NCBI GenBank assembly: GCA_963668465.1
Contig: OY764542.1
Coordinates: forward strand, 1,844,363 to 1,908,362
Source: Dehalococcoidia bacterium
Lineage (GTDB): Bacteria; Chloroflexota; Dehalococcoidia; Lucifugimonadales; Australimonadaceae
Direction of reading: 5' to 3'
Length of the DNA stretch: 64,000 nucleotides
The notes under the pieces are model-generated. The model had not been told where the DNA came from, made no database searches, and worked only from the letters and a program-made list of their open reading frames with translations. The translations under genes were made by a program, and so were the position numbers. This document shows positions 5,565 to 30,983 of this stretch, piece by piece; position 1 is the first letter of the stretch; the number at the start of each line of letters is the position of its first letter.

Positions 5565-6921
5565 TCCCTCTCCTGGCAACACCCAGCCTCGCGTGCGCCC
5601 ACGCGCCAACCTAGTCCCCAGGCGGCCTTCGGCACGCCTGTTCCGGCTCGGTAGCGTGCCATTCCTTGCCTTGCTGGCCGCTGCCGCGCTCGTCCTGCTC
5701 ACGCCGTCGCCCGCTCCGGCGAACTTCACCGAGGGCAGACTCAGCATCGGCTCCGGCAGCAGCGCGTTGGTCGTCGCCGTCTTCGCCGACATCGCGAACG
5801 CGCAGGACGGCGTCCCGTCGGGCGTGGCGTCGAGCGGTTCGATAACCGCAGGCGACGCGGCCTACATAGGCAACGGCGCAGACCCGCACAACACGTTCTC
5901 TGACAGCAGCCTCTACGTCTCCAACCAAGCCGACGCCTACAACGCCGTACTCATCACCGCCACCGTCGCAGGCGTTGAAGACGGCGCGTGTGCTGAGGCG
6001 ACCGTCTTCAACAGGGGCTCCCGCGAGTCCGTAACCGTCCTGCTCGCGCCCACGAGCGAGGCCCCGGTCGACGGCTCGCGCACCTACCAGGGCATCGTCG
6101 AGCTGGCCGAGAGGGACACGGAGAACGCCGACGGCCCTGCTTGTGGCGATTACGCCACTGGCACGGACGCTCTCGCCGTGCTGCGGTCAGTGGACCGCGA
6201 CAGGCTCGCCATCAACGTGCGGGGCGTATCCTCGTCCATCGAACTGGTCGTGGACGGCGAGGGGCCCGAGGTCAGCGTCTTCCACCCCCAACCGGACAGC
6301 TATCTCCGCTCAGTTGTCGTGACCTTCTCGTTCGATGTGCGCGACGACGGGGCCGGACTCCGCCACGACGGGGAGTTCGAGGCATCCGGAGACGGCGACC
6401 CGCGTCCGGTGAATGTGGATGGCGATCAACTCACCTCGGGCGAACCGCGCTCCACGCCGGGCGGAGGCGCAGCCGACATCCATGCCTACCTCAGCCGCGA
6501 GGGCGGCAGCGCCTCCGACATCACACCGTACGGAACGAGCCGCTGGGAGGTCATCGAGACAGGCTCGGCCTACTCGCTGTCCGTCGACGTGAACGTCGGA
6601 GGCAGCGGTACGTTCAACCTCGAGTTCGAAGCCACCGACCGCGCTGGCAACACGACAGTCGTGGACGCCGCGGACGCTGCGGTCCCCCCTCCGGGCTCCA
6701 CACCTACTCCGACACCGGATAGCAGTACGCCAACCCCCACCCCCATACCACTCCCCACGCCGGAACCAACGGCAACGCCGACGCCTACACCCACGCCGAC
6801 CGCGACTCCGACACCTACAGCCACACCGGGCCCGGATCCCGGCTTCCTCGCCTGGCTGGAGTCCTGGATACAAGCATGGCACACATGGCTGGCGCGGCTG
6901 CAGGCGGGGTTCTTCGGGTAG
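5545..6921 (+). CDS. Secreted/cell-surface protein, paralogue B
   Basis: Collinear with paralogue A over about 370 aa. It has a shorter PT linker and the C-terminus 'FLAWLESWIQAWHTWLARLQAGFFG'. Confidence 0.7.
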   Translation: MAHFFDSPSPGNTQPRVRPRANLVPRRPSARLFRLGSVPFLALLAAAALVLLTPSPAPANFTEGRLSIGSGSSALVVAVFADIANAQDGVPSGVASSGSITAGDAAYIGNGADPHNTFSDSSLYVSNQADAYNAVLITATVAGVEDGACAEATVFNRGSRESVTVLLAPTSEAPVDGSRTYQGIVELAERDTENADGPACGDYATGTDALAVLRSVDRDRLAINVRGVSSSIELVVDGEGPEVSVFHPQPDSYLRSVVVTFSFDVRDDGAGLRHDGEFEASGDGDPRPVNVDGDQLTSGEPRSTPGGGAADIHAYLSREGGSASDITPYGTSRWEVIETGSAYSLSVDVNVGGSGTFNLEFEATDRAGNTTVVDAADAAVPPPGSTPTPTPDSSTPTPTPIPLPTPEPTATPTPTPTPTATPTPTATPGPDPGFLAWLESWIQAWHTWLARLQAGFFG

Positions 6922-6992
6922 CGCCGCCAACGAACGACGGCCCTTATGAACGAACCGCGCACGCGTAGGCGGGCTGGTTCGAGACAACGCTC

Positions 6993-8487: not shown

Positions 8488-10194
8488 ATGCGCGCGACCG
8501 ATTTCCTCTCACGCACCTTAAGACAGGACCCCAGCGAGGCGGAGACGGTGAGCCACCGGCTCATGCTCCGCGCAGGCATGATGCTGCAGGCCGCCGCCGG
8601 CGTGTACTCCTACCTGCCGCTGGCGCTGCGCTCCATCCAGAAGATCGAACGCATCGTCAGGGAGGAGATGAACGCGGCAGGCGGGCAGGAAGTGCTCATG
8701 CCCACGCTGCAGACCCTCGAAACGTGGGAGCAGTCGGGGAGGGCCGCCGCGTTCGGCGGCAACCTCTTCCGCCTCTTCGACCGGCGCGAACGCCCGTTGG
8801 TGCTCGCGCCGACGCACGAGGAGGTCGTGACGGCCATCGCGGGAGCGCACGTCGAGTCTTACAGGGACCTGCCGCTCACCATCTACCAGATACAGACGAA
8901 GTTCCGTGACGAGCCGCGACCCCGCGCGGGGCTGCTCCGCGGGCGTGAGTTCACCATGAAGGACGCCTACTCCTTCGACACCGATCAGGAGGGACTGGAC
9001 GTCACCTACCAGCGGATGCGTGTGGCGTACCGCAACATATTCCGCCGCTGCGGGCTGCCGACGATCGAGGTCGAGGCCGACAGCGGTGCCATCGGCGGCA
9101 AGGACTCCCATGAATTCATCATGCCCGCGCCGAGCGGCGAGGACGTCATCCTCTACTGCGAAGAGTCCGGCTATGCCGCGAACGTCGAGCGCGCAACGTC
9201 GGTCATCGCCCCGGCGCAGGAAGACGAACCGCGTCCGCTGGAACTCGTGGACACGCCCGGCATCACCACCATCGCAGACCTCGCGGTCTATCTCGGCATC
9301 GCGGAGTCGCAGACGCTCAAGGCCGTCTTCTACCAGGCGGACGCGGAGACCGTGCTCGTGACGATTCGGGGCGACATCGAGGTCAACGAGGTGAAGCTGA
9401 AGAACCACCTCCACTGCCTGGACCTGCGCCTCGCCAACGCCGATGAGGTCGCCGCGGCGGGGCTGACGCCGGGCTCGACCTCGCCCATCGGGCTGTCGGG
9501 GATCCGGCGCATCGCGGACAACTCCATCCAGCAGGGAACGAACTTCGCCGCTGGAGCGAACCAGCCGGACAAGCACTACCAGAACGTGAACTATCCCCGC
9601 GACTTCCAGATCGACGAGACCGTGGACATCGCGACCGCCCGAGAGGGCGACGGCAGCCCGGACGGCCAGGGCACGCTCAAGGCCGTGCGCGGCATCGAGG
9701 TGGGGCACGTCTTCAAGCTCGGAACGTTCTTCTCGAACGCGCTCGGTGTCGACTATCTGGACGAGAGCGGCACGCTCAAACCACCGGTGATGGGTTGCTA
9801 CGGTATCGGCGTCACCCGAGTGCTCGCCGCCGCCATCGAGCAGAACCACGACGACAAGGGCATCATCTTTCCCGCGCCCATCGCGCCGTTCCAGGCGCAC
9901 CTCCTCGCCCTCAACGCCTCCGACCCCGACGTGATCGCCGCCGCTGACGCGCTGTACGAGGAGCTCACCTCGGCAGGCTGCGAAGTGCTGTACGACGACC
10001 GCACCGAGTCGGCGGGCGTGAAGTTCAACGACGCCGACCTCCTCGGCCTGCCCGTTCGCATCGTCGTCAGCCCGCGCAACCTCAAGCAGGGCGTCGTCGA
10101 GATCAAGCGCCGCCGGGCGGACGAGGCCTCGCAGGTCCCTGCGGACGGGGTCGTTCCAGCGGTGCGTGAAGTGCTCGCACTGGACGAACTGTAG
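8488..10194 (+). CDS. proS: Prolyl-tRNA synthetase (bacterial type)
   Basis: A 568-aa ORF with class II motifs '[25 protein letters not shown]' and 'GCYGIGVTR', plus an insertion/editing domain. Confidence 0.9.
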
Positions 10195-24244: not shown

Positions 24245-24321
24245 CGGGGTGTGGCGCAGTCCGGAAGCGCACCTGCATGGGGTGCAGGGGGCCGTTGGTT
24301 CAAATCCAATCACCCCGACCA
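24245..24321 (+). tRNA. tRNA-Pro (anticodon GGG), encoded CCA
   Basis: Hand-folded. Acceptor cggggtg/caccccg, anticodon stem cctgc/gcagg, loop atGGGgt, T-loop ttcaaat. Confidence 0.85.
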
Positions 24322-24348: not shown

Positions 24349-24777
24349 ATGACTACGTCTGGCAGCGGCAAGCCTACGTGGGTGCTGGAACACTTCGAGC
24401 GCTACATCGCGACCGACGGCGAAGACGGCCACATGTGGCGGGGAACGCCCACGCTCCTGCTCACGACAACTGGCCGCAAGTCCGGCAGGGAGATCACGAC
24501 ACCGCTCATCTACGGCACGCACGAGGGCAACTGCATCGTCGTGGCCTCGCGCGGTGGCGCGCCGGACCACCCACAGTGGTACTACAACCTGAGCGCAAAC
24601 CCGTCTGTTCGCGTGCAGGTGGCCGCCGACAAGTTCGAAGCCGTCGCACGCACCGCAGGCCCCGATGAGAAGCCCGCCCTGTGGAAGCTCATGGCGGGCA
24701 TCTACCCTCCCTACGACGAATACCAGGCGAAGACCGAGCGGGAGATTCCCGTCGTTGTCCTGGAACGGGCTGGATAA
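24349..24777 (+). CDS. Deazaflavin(F420)-dependent nitroreductase-family oxidoreductase (DDN/DUF385-like)
   Basis: 'LLLTTTGRKSGREITTPLIY', 'GGAPDHPQWYYNL' and 'REIPVVVLE'. Only the 3' part of ORF 23725..24777 is real, because the upstream part crosses tRNA-Pro. Confidence 0.8.
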   Translation: MTTSGSGKPTWVLEHFERYIATDGEDGHMWRGTPTLLLTTTGRKSGREITTPLIYGTHEGNCIVVASRGGAPDHPQWYYNLSANPSVRVQVAADKFEAVARTAGPDEKPALWKLMAGIYPPYDEYQAKTEREIPVVVLERAG

Positions 24778-24804
24778 CCCTCCCACAAGACTTCGAGCAA
24801 ACAG

Positions 24805-24833
24805 AGAGGCCGGTATGCGAAATACCGGCCTCT
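24805..24833. terminator. Bidirectional hairpin terminator
   Basis: agaggccggtat/ataccggcctct 12-bp stem with a 5-nt loop and a T-rich tail, between convergent genes. Confidence 0.65.
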
Positions 24834-24876
24834 TCTTTGGTGTTGCCTCGGTTGATGCTGATCGTGAGGATTCGGG

Positions 24877-25188
24877 TCAGGCCGCGAGCGGCATCGTCTG
24901 CATCCTGCGGAGCGCTCGGTGCACGGTGCGAACGCTGATGCCGAACCGATTCGCCACTTCGAAGGCCTGCAGGTTTTCGTACTGGCAGGCCCACGCTATC
25001 TCCTCGTCCCGTTCCCGCAGTTTGTAGGCCTGGTACCACGCCGGGTCATCGAACCTGCAACGCGGAAGCGGGCACTCCAGGCACGACATCGACGCCTCGC
25101 AGCCGGTGTCGGCGTATCGAATCTGTTCCGGCAGCCCATCCATAGCTGGTTCGTAGCGCCTGTCTCTCGGGTTCGTGTAGATGCTCAT
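24877..25188 (-). CDS. Small Cys-rich HTH DNA-binding protein
   Basis: RBS AGGAGG. It has a 'CEASMSCLECPLPRC' cysteine cluster and a C-terminal HTH 'EVANRFGISVRTVHRAL'. Confidence 0.6.
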   Translation of the reverse strand: MSIYTNPRDRRYEPAMDGLPEQIRYADTGCEASMSCLECPLPRCRFDDPAWYQAYKLRERDEEIAWACQYENLQAFEVANRFGISVRTVHRALRRMQTMPLAA

Positions 25189-25268
25189 CGCCTCTCCTCC
25201 TTCTGGTCATTCCGCCTCATAACGGCAATCCATGCGTTCTCGATTCCGTACTGTCCAGGCAACACTCT

Positions 25269-26579
25269 TCAGGACGCGATAGCCATGGGGAACGCCATCT
25301 GCTGCTCCCCCCCTTGCTCCGCATCCGCACTCGCCAACATCGATACCCCCTCCAGGAATCCATCGTTCTGTCCCTCGACCGCTACGGTGAATCCGCGTCC
25401 CTCGCCGACTCGTAGCACGGCCCACTCCACCTCGCGGCGCAGCGCCCGGTACTCCGGCGAACCGTCCGGTGCATAGAACGCCATCTTCCCTGTGAGGGCT
25501 GCCGCCATAACGGCGAACGATTCCTTTTCTCGCTGCCAAGCCGTATCGGGGACCCACTGCATGTGGGCCGGCTCCAGGTTCTGCTCCAACAGACTCCTTA
25601 CCTGGCCATCATTACGAGACGTACGCACCCTCACGAGCACGTCCTCGCACGGCCACGTCTTCTCGACGAACCGCTTCAGCCCTGCCACGAGCGTTGCCTC
25701 GTCTGCAGCCTCAGCCCACTTGTGGTCGAGGACACGCAACGCACCCGCAGTGCGCGATGCCACGGTGACGACAGCCGTCGCGGGGGCATCGACCGTACCC
25801 GCCGCTCGCGTGGCGACGATGGATGTCACCAGCCTGTCAGCCACGGCGAGCCTTCGCGGTCCGCCTTCCCCGAACAGGGCGCGCAGACGCTCACGCGGAA
25901 ACGCCGGAGCGCCTGCGGAGATGGGGCGGAGCGCGTACGCCGTCTGAAAGTCCGGGTGCAGGTCGCCGAGCCTCTGGCGTTCGACCTCGACCCGTTCCGC
26001 GTAGCCCGGCAGCTCTGCTTCCACGCGTTCCAGTGATACGCGGAAGTGCCTGCGGTCGCCGCCTGCTGCGGCAACTTCCTTGTTGGCGAGTTTCACCCGC
26101 TCGAATGGGGTCTGGCCGTTCCAGGGGCGCCCGTAGAGGACGAGCGTCGCACCGGAGCCGTTCGCCATCTCCTGCAGGCGCACCATCTCGGTGGGTCGGA
26201 GGAGGTGGGCCTCGACGACCTGGATCAGATCGAAGTGCCCGCGTACGTGCTCCAGGTCCTCGGGCGTTGCGTACAGCACCTGCGCGCGTCCCAACCGCAC
26301 ACACGCGCTCTCGTCCGACCACAACCCCTTCAGCGAACCCGAGCGCAGGTGGCTGACGAGCCGGCCTTTCACGTCCGGTTGCCCGCCCGGAACGACGCGG
26401 AGCAGAACCCCTCCCGCGTTCACGTTCACGCTCATCACCAGCATCTCCAACTGGGAGGCCAGCTCGTTCACGCCTGCCCCGATCGGCATCTCGACCGTGA
26501 ACGCCGAGCCCTGCTGCTGCAATACGTCCGATGTAACCGCTGTCGCTATCTCACGCTGATATGTCGTTGGCGTCTTCAT
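25269..26579 (-). CDS. Terminase-large-subunit-like protein (ATPase-like N-terminal half, RNase-H-like C-terminal half; catalytic motifs apparently degenerate)
   Basis: The motif order looks like TerL: 'YQREI', 'MPIGAGVNE' at the Walker A position (no Lys), 'FDLIQVVEAH' at Walker B, 'TLVLYGRPWNG', and 'NDGFLEGVSML' near the C-terminus. This is pattern recognition only, with no profile search. Confidence 0.35.
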   Translation of the reverse strand: MKTPTTYQREIATAVTSDVLQQQGSAFTVEMPIGAGVNELASQLEMLVMSVNVNAGGVLLRVVPGGQPDVKGRLVSHLRSGSLKGLWSDESACVRLGRAQVLYATPEDLEHVRGHFDLIQVVEAHLLRPTEMVRLQEMANGSGATLVLYGRPWNGQTPFERVKLANKEVAAAGGDRRHFRVSLERVEAELPGYAERVEVERQRLGDLHPDFQTAYALRPISAGAPAFPRERLRALFGEGGPRRLAVADRLVTSIVATRAAGTVDAPATAVVTVASRTAGALRVLDHKWAEAADEATLVAGLKRFVEKTWPCEDVLVRVRTSRNDGQVRSLLEQNLEPAHMQWVPDTAWQREKESFAVMAAALTGKMAFYAPDGSPEYRALRREVEWAVLRVGEGRGFTVAVEGQNDGFLEGVSMLASADAEQGGEQQMAFPMAIAS

Positions 26580-26594
26580 CTCAATGCTCCCGGC

Positions 26595-26670
26595 AGAACG
26601 TATGTACTACGCTGCGGGCATATTAGAACGCCTGTTCTATGCTGTCAACACCGTTTAGAACGCATGTTTC
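26595..26670 (-). promoter_or_regulatory. Promoter TTGACA-17-TAATAT (minus strand: -35 at 26648-26643, -10 at 26625-26620) with three GAAC-N4-GTTC operator boxes
   Basis: The boxes are AGAACGTATGTACT (26595-26608), TAGAACGCCTGTTCTA (26624-26639, a perfect 16-nt palindrome filling the spacer) and AGAACGCATGTTTC (26657-26670). Confidence 0.7.
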
Positions 26671-26756
26671 CCACTGTTTCCCAGCCTCTCTGTCGCGGTT
26701 GCCGTTCAGCCCCACAAGGCGTAGGTTGTCCGGCGCACATCGCACGGGAGCAGGTA

Positions 26757-27572
26757 GTGACGCTCGAGGGCAAGGTCGTTGTGATAACCGGCGCAGCGAG
26801 GGGCATGGGGCGCGCCTACACGCACGGCTTCCTCGACGAGGGCTGCCGCGTCGTTTGCGGCGATCTCTCCTGGGTCGGCGACGGCGCCGAGGAGACGCGT
26901 GCCGTCGTGGAAGCGGCAGGGGGACTGGCGCTCGAACTCGACATCACACGCGACGACCACATCGTGGCTGCGTTCGCGGCAACGATGGAGCGCTTCGGGA
27001 CCGTGGACGTGCTGCTGAACAACGCAGGGATGCGTCAGCGGCACGTCATCCCACCGCACGGCATCGGCAAGGTGCTGGATGTGCCGCCGGAGGACTGGCG
27101 GCGCATGTTCGACGTCAACGTCTTCGGCACGCTCGCGATGATCCGCACGTTCGTTCAGCCGATGCTGGAGAAGCGTGCGGGAAGCATCATCAACGTCTCC
27201 ACGACAGGGACCGACCCGCGCTGGTACCGGCCGCACAGCCGGGAGCAGCCCTACATGGCATCCAAGTCCGCACTCACGAACCTCTCGCTCTACCTCGCGA
27301 ACGAGATCGCTGAGTACAACGTCGCGGTCAACGTGCTCTTTCCGCCGCATGCCGCCACCACCGGCACTCGGGAGCAGGACATCATCCGCAAGGAGCACGG
27401 CATCATGGCGGCGGGCGCGATACCGCTGAAGCCTGAGGCGGTCGTGCCCCTTGCCAAGTTCTTCGCCGCGCAGACCGCCTCGACCGGCGTCACCGGCAAG
27501 GTCATCTACGCCGCCGACTGGAACCTCGAGCACGGCCTCGGCGGGCCGGACGCGTGGCTATCCGAGGGTTGA
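26757..27572 (+). CDS. Short-chain dehydrogenase/reductase
   Basis: GTG start after GGGAG, and 'VVVITGAARGMGRA'. The upstream part of ORF 26046..27572 is antisense to the previous gene. Confidence 0.8.
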   Translation: MTLEGKVVVITGAARGMGRAYTHGFLDEGCRVVCGDLSWVGDGAEETRAVVEAAGGLALELDITRDDHIVAAFAATMERFGTVDVLLNNAGMRQRHVIPPHGIGKVLDVPPEDWRRMFDVNVFGTLAMIRTFVQPMLEKRAGSIINVSTTGTDPRWYRPHSREQPYMASKSALTNLSLYLANEIAEYNVAVNVLFPPHAATTGTREQDIIRKEHGIMAAGAIPLKPEAVVPLAKFFAAQTASTGVTGKVIYAADWNLEHGLGGPDAWLSEG

Positions 27573-30410: not shown

Positions 30411-30506
30411 TCACTGCTCGACGTAGGCTTCCGCGGCGGGCATGAGGTCGAGCTGGGCCCTGATGCAGGCGTGGTAGCGTGCAATGGAGCGGACGGCGGA
30501 CCTCAT
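30411..30506 (-). CDS. Candidate 31-aa micro-ORF (MRSAVRSIARYHACIRAQLDLMPAAEAYVEQ)
   Basis: Its ATG overlaps the upstream gene's TGA as ATGA. Its stop is followed at once by the AAGGAGG RBS of the next gene. It is below the ORF-track size cutoff. Confidence 0.35.
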   Translation of the reverse strand: MRSAVRSIARYHACIRAQLDLMPAAEAYVEQ

Positions 30507-30904
30507 CGCTGGTACCTCAACAGGGCGGTAGCGGTCTGGAGGGTTTCCAGATCGTGGCGGATCTCGCGGACGTCGCCGACCTTAAGCGCGGTGGAGAGGG
30601 TGATGCGGACGGCCATGGCCCTGACCCTGGGGTTGGGGTCCTCCAGGAGTTCAGCGAGGATGTTGATGCTCTTGAGGACGAGGCCCTGGAGTTCGACGCG
30701 CGCCAGGGACTCGGCGTCCTTGCGGACACGTTCGAGTTCGCCGCGGAAGACGGGGTCGTGCATCCACCTGTGGAGGGTGGTGCGGTTGATGCGAGCGGCC
30801 TTCGCGCCGGCAGTGAGCGAGTCGGTGGCGGCGATATAGGGAAGCGCAAGGGTCTGCTTGGGTGAGAGGGCGACTTTTCTGTTTTCTGTTGCTTTCTGCT
30901 GCAT
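30503..30904 (-). CDS. HTH protein, phage terminase-small-subunit-like N-terminus
   Basis: ATG 30904 has GGAG upstream. 'LSPKQTLALPYIAATDSLTAGAKAARINRTTLHRWMHDPVFRGEL' resembles the TerS/HTH_23 pattern. The assignment is from memory only. Confidence 0.45.
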   Translation of the reverse strand: MQQKATENRKVALSPKQTLALPYIAATDSLTAGAKAARINRTTLHRWMHDPVFRGELERVRKDAESLARVELQGLVLKSINILAELLEDPNPRVRAMAVRITLSTALKVGDVREIRHDLETLQTATALLRYQR

Positions 30905-30983
30905 CAGGCGTACTCCACTCGTGAGATCGGCCTCTCCCCTGCAACAATCGGGCTGCGCTCCGCCTCGGCGATCCGTACAGACC

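Follow-up and report, generated by a model that had tools for sequence, protein, structure and literature searches.

Phage genes that are kept by their host and switched on through the DNA-damage response are known from PBSX in B. subtilis, the R and F pyocins and the gene transfer agent of Rhodobacter. All of these retain full sets of structural genes together with active terminases, and in PBSX a sigma-like positive factor is encoded next to the terminase genes. The host SOS repressor, LexA, has the operator GAAC-N4-GTTC (the Cheo or SOS box) in Firmicutes and Actinobacteria, and the LexA of Dehalococcoides, studied in D. ethenogenes, reportedly binds exactly this sequence. A single promoter may carry several LexA boxes, as do those of B. 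subtilis lexA and E. coli recN. Chloroflexi are described as using a variation of the Firmicute and Actinobacterial operator, with reference to the D. ethenogenes study, and lexA promoters of Verrucomicrobia carry a strong site in tandem with a degenerate one (PMC4951493). In the Bacillus thuringiensis tectivirus GIL01, host LexA directly represses phage promoters through such boxes, including the late (structural) promoter P3, and a small phage-encoded DNA-binding or accessory protein takes part in the switch (PMC4551915, PMC6182141). A prophage terminase has also been linked to host stress; the terminase of the Gifsy-1 prophage is reported to act as a tRNase under oxidative stress (PMC11610961). 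Here we describe a locus in a 64,000-nucleotide stretch of contig OY764542.1 from a Dehalococcoidia bacterium (this whole stretch is referred to below as the window), where a promoter with three boxes of the LexA type precedes two phage-derived genes, one of which encodes a terminase-like protein without catalytic residues.

A promoter with three LexA-type boxes

A sequence-only reading of the window had described a near-consensus promoter (TTGACA, a 17-nt spacer and TAATAT) with a perfect 16-nt palindrome in its spacer, one further box on either side, and box centres about 30 and 32 bp apart. All of these elements are present, in order, on the minus strand between 26720 and 26570 (Table 1). 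The promoter is found at 26648-26620, the three boxes lie where that reading had placed them, and the measured distances between box centres are 32 and 30 bp. A generic promoter scan of 24700-26900 identified this promoter alone, with 10/12 matches to the consensus and a 17-nt spacer.

Each box is built on the 14-bp inverted-repeat core GAAC-N4-GTTC, which is perfect in box 2 and has one mismatch in each of boxes 1 and 3. The 14-bp core of box 2 ends at the first T of the -10 hexamer. The placement of the boxes in the promoter spacer, 5' of the -35 and in the early transcribed region fits a role in repression.

Conservation of the promoter and its boxes

The exact core occurs three times in the window, and the two occurrences other than box 2 (7348 and 13849) are within long open reading frames (ORFs). 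When the window was scanned with a position weight matrix, only the three boxes reached 10 bits or more, with 27.1 bits for box 2 and 17.1 and 15.0 bits for the others; however, the matrix was derived from perfect-core boxes of the same promoter family (the window and its orthologues), and this uniqueness shows only that other sites in the window do not resemble them. Three core sites with at most one mismatch fell within 90 bp in 2 of 300 first-order Markov simulations, corresponding to about 0.7% of 64-kb windows.

A genome scan for relatives of the first gene of the operon gave 36 loci, all of them in metagenome-assembled genomes of Dehalococcoidia or SAR202. The orthologues in L001-L027 share 50-83% protein identity with the 436-aa product of the window, and two deeper relatives, L117 and L118, share 36-38%. 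The promoter layout is present upstream of all 29 of these orthologues (36-83% identity), so that the conservation named by the sequence-only reading as a check on its proposal is indeed seen.

In L001-L027 the boxes are located approximately 90, 58 and 28 nt 5' of the ATG. The promoter together with boxes 1 and 2 is found in 26 of these 27 loci and in both L117 and L118; L018 is the only one of the 27 in which box 1 drops beneath the cut-off of one mismatch. Box 2 has a perfect core in 24 of the 27 orthologues (L016, L018 and L021 have one mismatch), and its half-sites are nearly invariant among 28 aligned promoters. The right half of box 1, GTTCT, is invariant in the same alignment, whereas the left half matches poorly and differs among the promoters (GAAAC, GGAAC, CGCAC and others). 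At the same threshold box 3 is identified in 23 of the 27 and in L117 and L118, and was not found in L001, L016, L018 or L021. Its better half-site is on opposite sides in two clades (AGTAC..GTTCT versus AGAAC..GTGCG). All three boxes are kept in both deeper relatives; in L118 the cores of boxes 2 and 3 are perfect and that of box 1 has a single mismatch.

The -35 hexamer TTGACA is invariant in all 28 aligned promoters and is also present in L117 and L118, and the -10 hexamer has the form TAnTAT in 27 of the 28. Most aligned orthologues have the GGAG of the ribosome-binding site, but several that are more divergent lack it. The N4 spacers and the DNA between and flanking the boxes vary across the alignment, and the spacing of the boxes is 32-33 and 29-33 bp. 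Synonymous divergence (dS) among the genomes compared is 0.46-1.4, which is near saturation, and unconstrained intergenic DNA would therefore be scrambled. Away from these promoters the 27 orthologous loci contain just two matches to the strict 14-mer with at most one mismatch (in L013 and L027), and in the nine distant loci nearly all matches to it are in promoters of homologous phage-like clusters. Such conservation shows that the boxes are functional, and we regard this phylogenetic evidence as decisive and as stronger than the chance statistics within the window.

The first gene encodes a terminase-derived protein

The operon extends from the promoter to a terminator hairpin and contains two genes. 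The 436-aa product of the first gene has no match in Pfam, PHROG or PADLOC, and its identity accordingly comes from distant homologues and the predicted fold only. A collection of 5.8 billion proteins contains only 45 relatives, and all of those with a named source are from Chloroflexi. The AlphaFold2 model of the protein (pLDDT 85) has the two-domain fold of terminase large subunits (TerL), an N-terminal ASCE ATPase and a C-terminal RNase H-like nuclease. In a Foldseek search of the PDB, ranks 1-30 are all terminase entries; the best match is Sf6 gp2 (E 5e-13), and the other top matches include D6E TerL (TM 0.59), HK97 and T4 gp17. Homologues in the distant loci L028-L036 (26-35% identity), for example those in L028 and L034, match Terminase_6C and the terminase-large PHROGs.

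The catalytic residues were assessed by alignment with the L028 and L034 proteins, not by structural superposition. In the clade of the window the Walker A arginine and lysine are lost, as ARQGGKNE is changed to PIGAGVNE (R-Q-x-G-K to I-G-A-G-V), and the Walker B aspartate is lost in the change from DEAQD to VEAHL. The nuclease motifs are also changed, from GIDVAG to SIVATR, from VVVDATG to VRVRTSR and from HDD to NDG, and two of the nuclease aspartates are gone from the 436-aa protein. The Walker A lysine is missing from the clade of P0042, P0043 and P0045 as well. By this alignment, the product of the first gene is a terminase-derived pseudo-enzyme without ATPase and nuclease catalytic residues.

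The gene itself is not a pseudogene, since every orthologue read has an intact ORF and the ratio of nonsynonymous to synonymous substitution rates (dN/dS) is 0.15-0.19 against close relatives (0.15-0.32 over all comparisons; 0.05-0.07 for the neighbouring prfB). The second gene gives 0.08-0.27, with 0.08-0.16 against close relatives, and both genes are under purifying selection. The sequence-only reading had placed the two-gene module outside the classical SOS genes, and a terminase-derived protein paired with a four-cysteine helix-turn-helix (Cys4-HTH) protein bears this out. It had not recognized the phage origin of the pair, in which an inactivated large terminase subunit is accompanied by the Cys4-HTH protein. 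With this recognition the locus becomes a case of SOS-type control inherited from a prophage packaging operon and not an odd SOS gene.

The second gene and the intra-operon spacer

The 103-aa product of the second gene contains the motif Y-x-D-[TSD]-G-C-x6-C-L-x-C-P-L-P-x-C-x-[FY]-D-[DE]-P, in which the cysteines of the window protein are arranged as C-x6-C-x2-C-x4-C. At the C terminus is a three-helix HTH that weakly resembles sigma region 4, Mu Mor and phage late activators, and several residues of this HTH are invariant, as are all four cysteines. A fold search with the model of this protein returned generic HTH matches only (E > 0.1), and the cysteine region is modelled at low confidence. 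The gene lies directly 3' of the terminase-like gene in 32 of the 36 genome loci, and it is also called directly after that gene in L117 and L118. WhiB-like Fe-S factors are defined by a C-x(n)-C-x2-C-x5-C motif plus a G[VI]WGG turn. A WhiB-like assignment was considered and rejected, as the spacing of the cysteines differs, [FY]D[DE]P follows them, and there is no WGG turn and no match to the Whib family of Pfam.

The two genes are separated by an 80-nt spacer, whose conservation is much stronger than that of synonymous sites. A search for covarying RNA structure in this spacer gave nothing, and Rfam identified only the tRNA nearby. A conserved sequence 5' of box 1, GGACGGCAACCG (approximately 26697-26708, minus strand), has GGCAAC, which is the reverse complement of the GTTGCC core in the invariant GTGTTGCCTGGA of the spacer. 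This shared GGCAAC/GTTGCC element may be bound as a second site by a protein such as the Cys4-HTH protein.

Table 1. Features of the operon and its promoter, with positions in the window. Positions relative to the transcription start take the start to be 7 nt past the -10 hexamer (inferred, unmapped).
Feature	Position	Strand	Description
Box 1, GAAACATGCGTTCT	26670-26657	minus	5' of the -35, about -57 to -44; one core mismatch
AAACGGTG	between box 1 and the -35	minus	sequence read
-35 hexamer, TTGACA	26648-26643	minus	promoter scan and alignment
GCA	between the -35 and box 2	minus	3-nt link
Box 2, TAGAACAGGCGTTCTA	26639-26624		perfect 16-bp palindrome filling the 17-nt spacer
-10 hexamer, TAATAT	26625-26620	minus	TA from the end of box 2 plus ATAT
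GCCCGCAGCGT	between the -10 and box 3	minus	sequence read
Box 3, AGTACATACGTTCT	26608-26595	minus	early transcribed region, about +6 to +19; one core mismatch
GCCGGGAGCATTGAG	between box 3 and ATG 26579	minus	sequence read
Ribosome-binding site, GGAG	26590-26587	minus	7 nt 5' of ATG 26579
Gene 1, 436-aa terminase-large-subunit-derived protein (pseudo-terminase)	25269..26579	minus	fold, distant homologues and alignment
Intra-operon spacer, 80 nt	25189..25268	minus	unusually conserved; invariant GTGTTGCCTGGA just 3' of the stop codon
Gene 2, 103-aa Cys4-HTH protein	24877..25188	minus	four invariant cysteines, then a sigma-region-4/Mor-like HTH
Perfect bidirectional terminator hairpin	24804..24834	both	closes the operon between the convergent HTH and F420H2_quin_red-family genes

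Relatives in phage-like clusters and viral contigs

TerL genes beside portal or small-terminase genes were identified only in the distant loci L028-L030 and in viral loci. In L028-L030 the TerL homologue is followed by an SPP1-type portal gene. These genes are part of a compact phage-like cluster (8337-14788 in L028, also present in L029 and L030) between relA/rpsT and a transporter gene. The order of the encoded products in L028 is a membrane protein, a small coiled protein, a small transmembrane protein, TerL, the Cys4-HTH protein, the SPP1-type portal, DUF6941 and an acidic protein. The Walker and nuclease motifs of this TerL are intact in the alignment, box promoters are located at 8819 and 14225, and a single capsid query found no capsid homologue in the cluster. 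Clusters of this type may represent an intermediate stage of domestication.

A scan of IMG/VR identified 80 contigs with terminases 39-64% identical to the L028 protein. All of these viral contigs are partial, and the absence of a gene from any of them is weak evidence. One of them, L113, encodes a ParB-like protein, TerL, a portal protein and a fusion of protease and major capsid protein. Two promoters built in the same way, TTGACAcccTGAACACGTGTTCTATAAT and TTGACTgtgaAGCACGGTTGTTCTATCAT, precede its packaging genes. In the region 6884-6990 the first of these is followed, about 30 nt on, by a GC-rich hairpin and a run of T residues, and this promoter may give a short SOS-controlled transcript rather than an mRNA.

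The box-in-spacer design can be written TTGACA-N3-4-box-TAnnnT, with the -10 beginning on the last T of the box, and it occurs in approximately 15 viral loci and in L028-L036. There are often two such promoters per locus, and they are found 5' of the packaging genes, before the Cys4-HTH or portal genes, or beside a gene for an acidic protein. A conserved GACAAAA(T/C)NCTG, overlapping the -35 region, begins 21-22 nt 5' of the box in L033, L035-L039 and L043.

The relatives whose terminase motifs are intact are in phage-like clusters with portal and protease-capsid genes, and these clusters have one or two box-in-spacer promoters per locus. The SAR202 module resembles what would be left of such a packaging operon, with the promoter kept and flanking boxes added. 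That promoters of this design are found in many Dehalococcoidia proviral contigs suggests, by analogy with GIL01, a direct reliance of these phages on host LexA.

Candidate binding proteins

The motif is equal to the GAAC-N4-GTTC operator of LexA in Firmicutes and Actinobacteria, as the sequence-only reading had recognized, and with a variation of this operator reported in Chloroflexi (PMC4951493) LexA is the best explanation. We consider it moderately likely that the boxes are operators for the host SOS repressor and that they place a domesticated remnant of a packaging operon under damage-inducible control. The sequence of the boxes is unchanged while the Cys4-HTH protein diverges to 40-46% identity, which supports LexA, as does the finding of boxes in about ten viral loci, including L113, in whose partial contigs no Cys4-HTH gene was found. 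The direct repression of GIL01 promoters, a late one included, by the LexA of its host provides a precedent. We infer LexA as the binder, induction by DNA damage, and the roles of the two proteins suggested below.

In a LexA-controlled operon, dimers would bind the perfect central box in the -35/-10 spacer and occlude RNA polymerase. The two weaker boxes, about three helical turns away and on the same face of the helix, could provide cooperative stabilisation or act as a roadblock, and the outcome would be tight repression of a near-consensus sigma-70-type promoter. DNA damage would activate RecA, LexA would cleave itself, and the strong promoter would fire. The two products, a terminase-fold protein without catalytic activity and an HTH protein that would bind metal, might then act together, and we speculate that they serve as a second-tier regulator or interfere with the packaging of related phages.

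Several observations weigh against this assignment. Neither lexA, uvrA, uvrB, ruvB nor dinB was found in the window or in 116 loci, and searches of the window and the 36 genome loci gave no recA; sequences from E. coli, B. subtilis and M. tuberculosis served as queries. Membership of the motif in a genome-wide SOS regulon is accordingly putative, as is the presence of LexA in these genomes. The matrix scan gave no further sites of the box type in the window. In Bacillus and Mycobacterium the preferred flanks are CGAAC/GTTCG, but here they are AGAAC/GTTCT. In addition, the operon encodes a DNA-binding (HTH) protein of its own, and among the 80 viral loci boxes are enriched in those with the Cys4-HTH gene (5/8 versus approximately 10/72).

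These last two observations would also be expected from autorepression, in which dimers of the Cys4-HTH protein would occupy the three palindromes, shut off the promoter of their own operon and be released by a redox or metal change at the Cys4 site, not through RecA. The retention of its gene within the operon and the invariance of the cysteines and HTH residues noted above are in keeping with this, as is the presence of a box-in-spacer promoter approximately 20-130 bp 5' of the Cys4-HTH gene in the viral loci L037, L038, L039, L043 and L046. However, L048, L056 and L077 have the gene with no box in a promoter context, and the viral loci that have boxes and apparently no such gene point the same way, with the small weight that partial contigs allow. 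The similarity of the HTH, weak as it is, is to sigma region 4, Mor and late activators and not to repressors, and the identity of the box with an established LexA operator would have to be a coincidence. Autorepression is the main rival and a credible one, but seems to us unlikely.

The binder must have been kept in all of these genomes. No repressor-like gene is evident among the examined neighbours of the module, and the binder is therefore either encoded elsewhere in the genome or is the HTH protein of the operon. A binder encoded elsewhere could be another chromosomal repressor with GAAC/GTTC half-sites, such as a LexA paralogue or an unrelated dimeric regulator, with control that is unrelated to DNA damage; the AGAAC/GTTCT flanks, which depart from the classical CGAAC/GTTCG, could be explained in this way. 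We know of no other widespread regulator with a GAAC-N4-GTTC operator, which counts against such a protein. Parsimony favours LexA given the D. ethenogenes precedent (PMC4951493) and the phage ancestry of the cargo, and a different repressor is in our view decidedly unlikely. It is highly improbable that the boxes serve the divergent short-chain dehydrogenase (SDR) gene, which starts at 26751, or that they are a chance cluster without function. Box 1 is only about 80 bp from the SDR start, and the simulations described above do produce such clusters at a low frequency. However, the boxes are kept at the same distance from the ATG in loci where an adjoining SDR gene was undetected (L010, L012-L015, L025, L027, L117 and L118), and conservation over 29 orthologous promoters excludes chance, so both of these readings are in effect refuted.

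Chromosomal setting

The genes surrounding the module are ordinary metabolic and housekeeping genes and are largely alike across most of the orthologous loci. An arylsulfotransferase-like gene and the SDR gene are on one flank, and a F420H2_quin_red-family gene, prfB and a gene for a peptide-binding protein are on the other; the module is syntenic next to prfB. A tRNA-Pro(GGG) gene (24245-24321) is located close to the terminator hairpin, and a search for prophage boundaries found no att-like repeat of its 3' end longer than 13 nt. Homologues of portal, capsid or the small proteins of the L028-type cluster were not found in the window or in L001-L027 (21 kb around each orthologue). The module is chromosomal and vertically inherited in SAR202 and other Dehalococcoidia; complete chromosomes that have it include OZ220673.1, OZ242210.1, OZ242348.1 and OY282355.1.

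A 135-aa ORF (30503-30910, minus strand) lies 4 kb 5' of the operon on the same strand, with Rieske oxygenase, arylsulfotransferase-like and dehydrogenase genes in between. It matches phrog_2538, a family of terminase small subunits (E 1.3e-5), and has a weaker match to the Pfam family HTH_Tnp_1_2. This ORF, which is conserved in L003, L006 and L009 and is not preceded by an SOS-type box, may be another leftover of the ancestral packaging module from which the operon derives.

The ENA contig ctg717501l (2,854,006 bp), labelled as complete, has one copy of the entire locus near each end (L120 and L122; P0007/P0010), and the copies differ slightly. Their gene context is the same, and they probably reflect redundancy at the assembly ends from two strains and not a true duplication.

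Possible role and significance

SAR202 and other Dehalococcoidia are abundant uncultured bacteria of the ocean and of sponges, and their gene regulation is essentially unstudied. The promoter described here offers a clean regulatory element of deep conservation, for which an explicit binder can be named and tested. Our searches of the literature on SAR202, prophages, terminases and LexA found no prior description of the module. What is new is the retention of SOS-type control on a domesticated, enzymatically dead pair of phage packaging genes that is conserved in a major uncultured marine lineage. If LexA binds the boxes, this would be a first picture of SOS control in SAR202/Dehalococcoidia, and the only strongly conserved site of the region would control a phage-derived pair and not a repair gene. 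It would also mean that the LexA-dependent packaging promoter of a prophage was kept while the terminase lost its enzymatic residues, an example of domestication with the regulation retained.

One further proposal, which we consider unlikely and put forward tentatively, is that the host has made a damage-triggered device from the dead terminase, either as a poison of packaging or as a cofactor or sensor for the Cys4-HTH protein. As a poison, the pseudo-terminase may have kept surfaces that contact the portal, the small terminase or DNA while being unable to hydrolyse ATP or cleave DNA, and it may block the packaging of related Dehalococcoidia phages upon SOS induction, whether by prophage induction, infection or DNA damage. 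As a cofactor or sensor, it may assist a Cys4-HTH regulator that drives a second-tier response. Either would be a new class of SOS-controlled anti-phage or regulatory module, maintained at one chromosomal site across SAR202.

Comparison with known systems

The first gene product shares the two-domain fold of Sf6 gp2, D6E TerL, HK97 and T4 gp17. Unlike these terminases it has lost the catalytic residues, and its gene has no adjacent portal gene. The module resembles the Gifsy-1 terminase in a putative use of a prophage terminase under host stress; however, the Gifsy-1 enzyme is active and is part of a prophage. PBSX, the pyocins and the gene transfer agent are likewise host-kept phage genes, yet the module described here is without an active terminase and without the portal, capsid and L028-type small-protein genes sought around it.

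With GIL01 the locus has in common LexA-type boxes on a phage-derived promoter and a small DNA-binding protein encoded alongside. However, GIL01 is a complete inducible phage, whereas here there are two vertically inherited phage-derived genes, one of them encoding a catalytically dead protein, with no virion genes found nearby. A lambda CI-type switch was considered and rejected, as there is no adjacent repressor gene and the divergent neighbour is a short-chain dehydrogenase or arylsulfotransferase-like gene. The arrangement nevertheless recalls lambda OR1-OR3, in which three dyad operators of graded quality lie over one promoter, and it would similarly suggest cooperative repression; but the boxes are 30-33 bp apart and not adjacent, and the motif is that of a global regulator of the host.

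With the LexA operator of Firmicutes, Actinobacteria and Dehalococcoides the boxes share the 14-bp dyad core, the overlap of operator and promoter and the presence of several boxes on one promoter. The locus differs from it in having A/T in place of C/G as the outer nucleotides of the half-sites (AGAAC..GTTCT), in a target that is not a repair gene, and in having its three boxes spread over a consensus promoter, each about three helical turns from the next.

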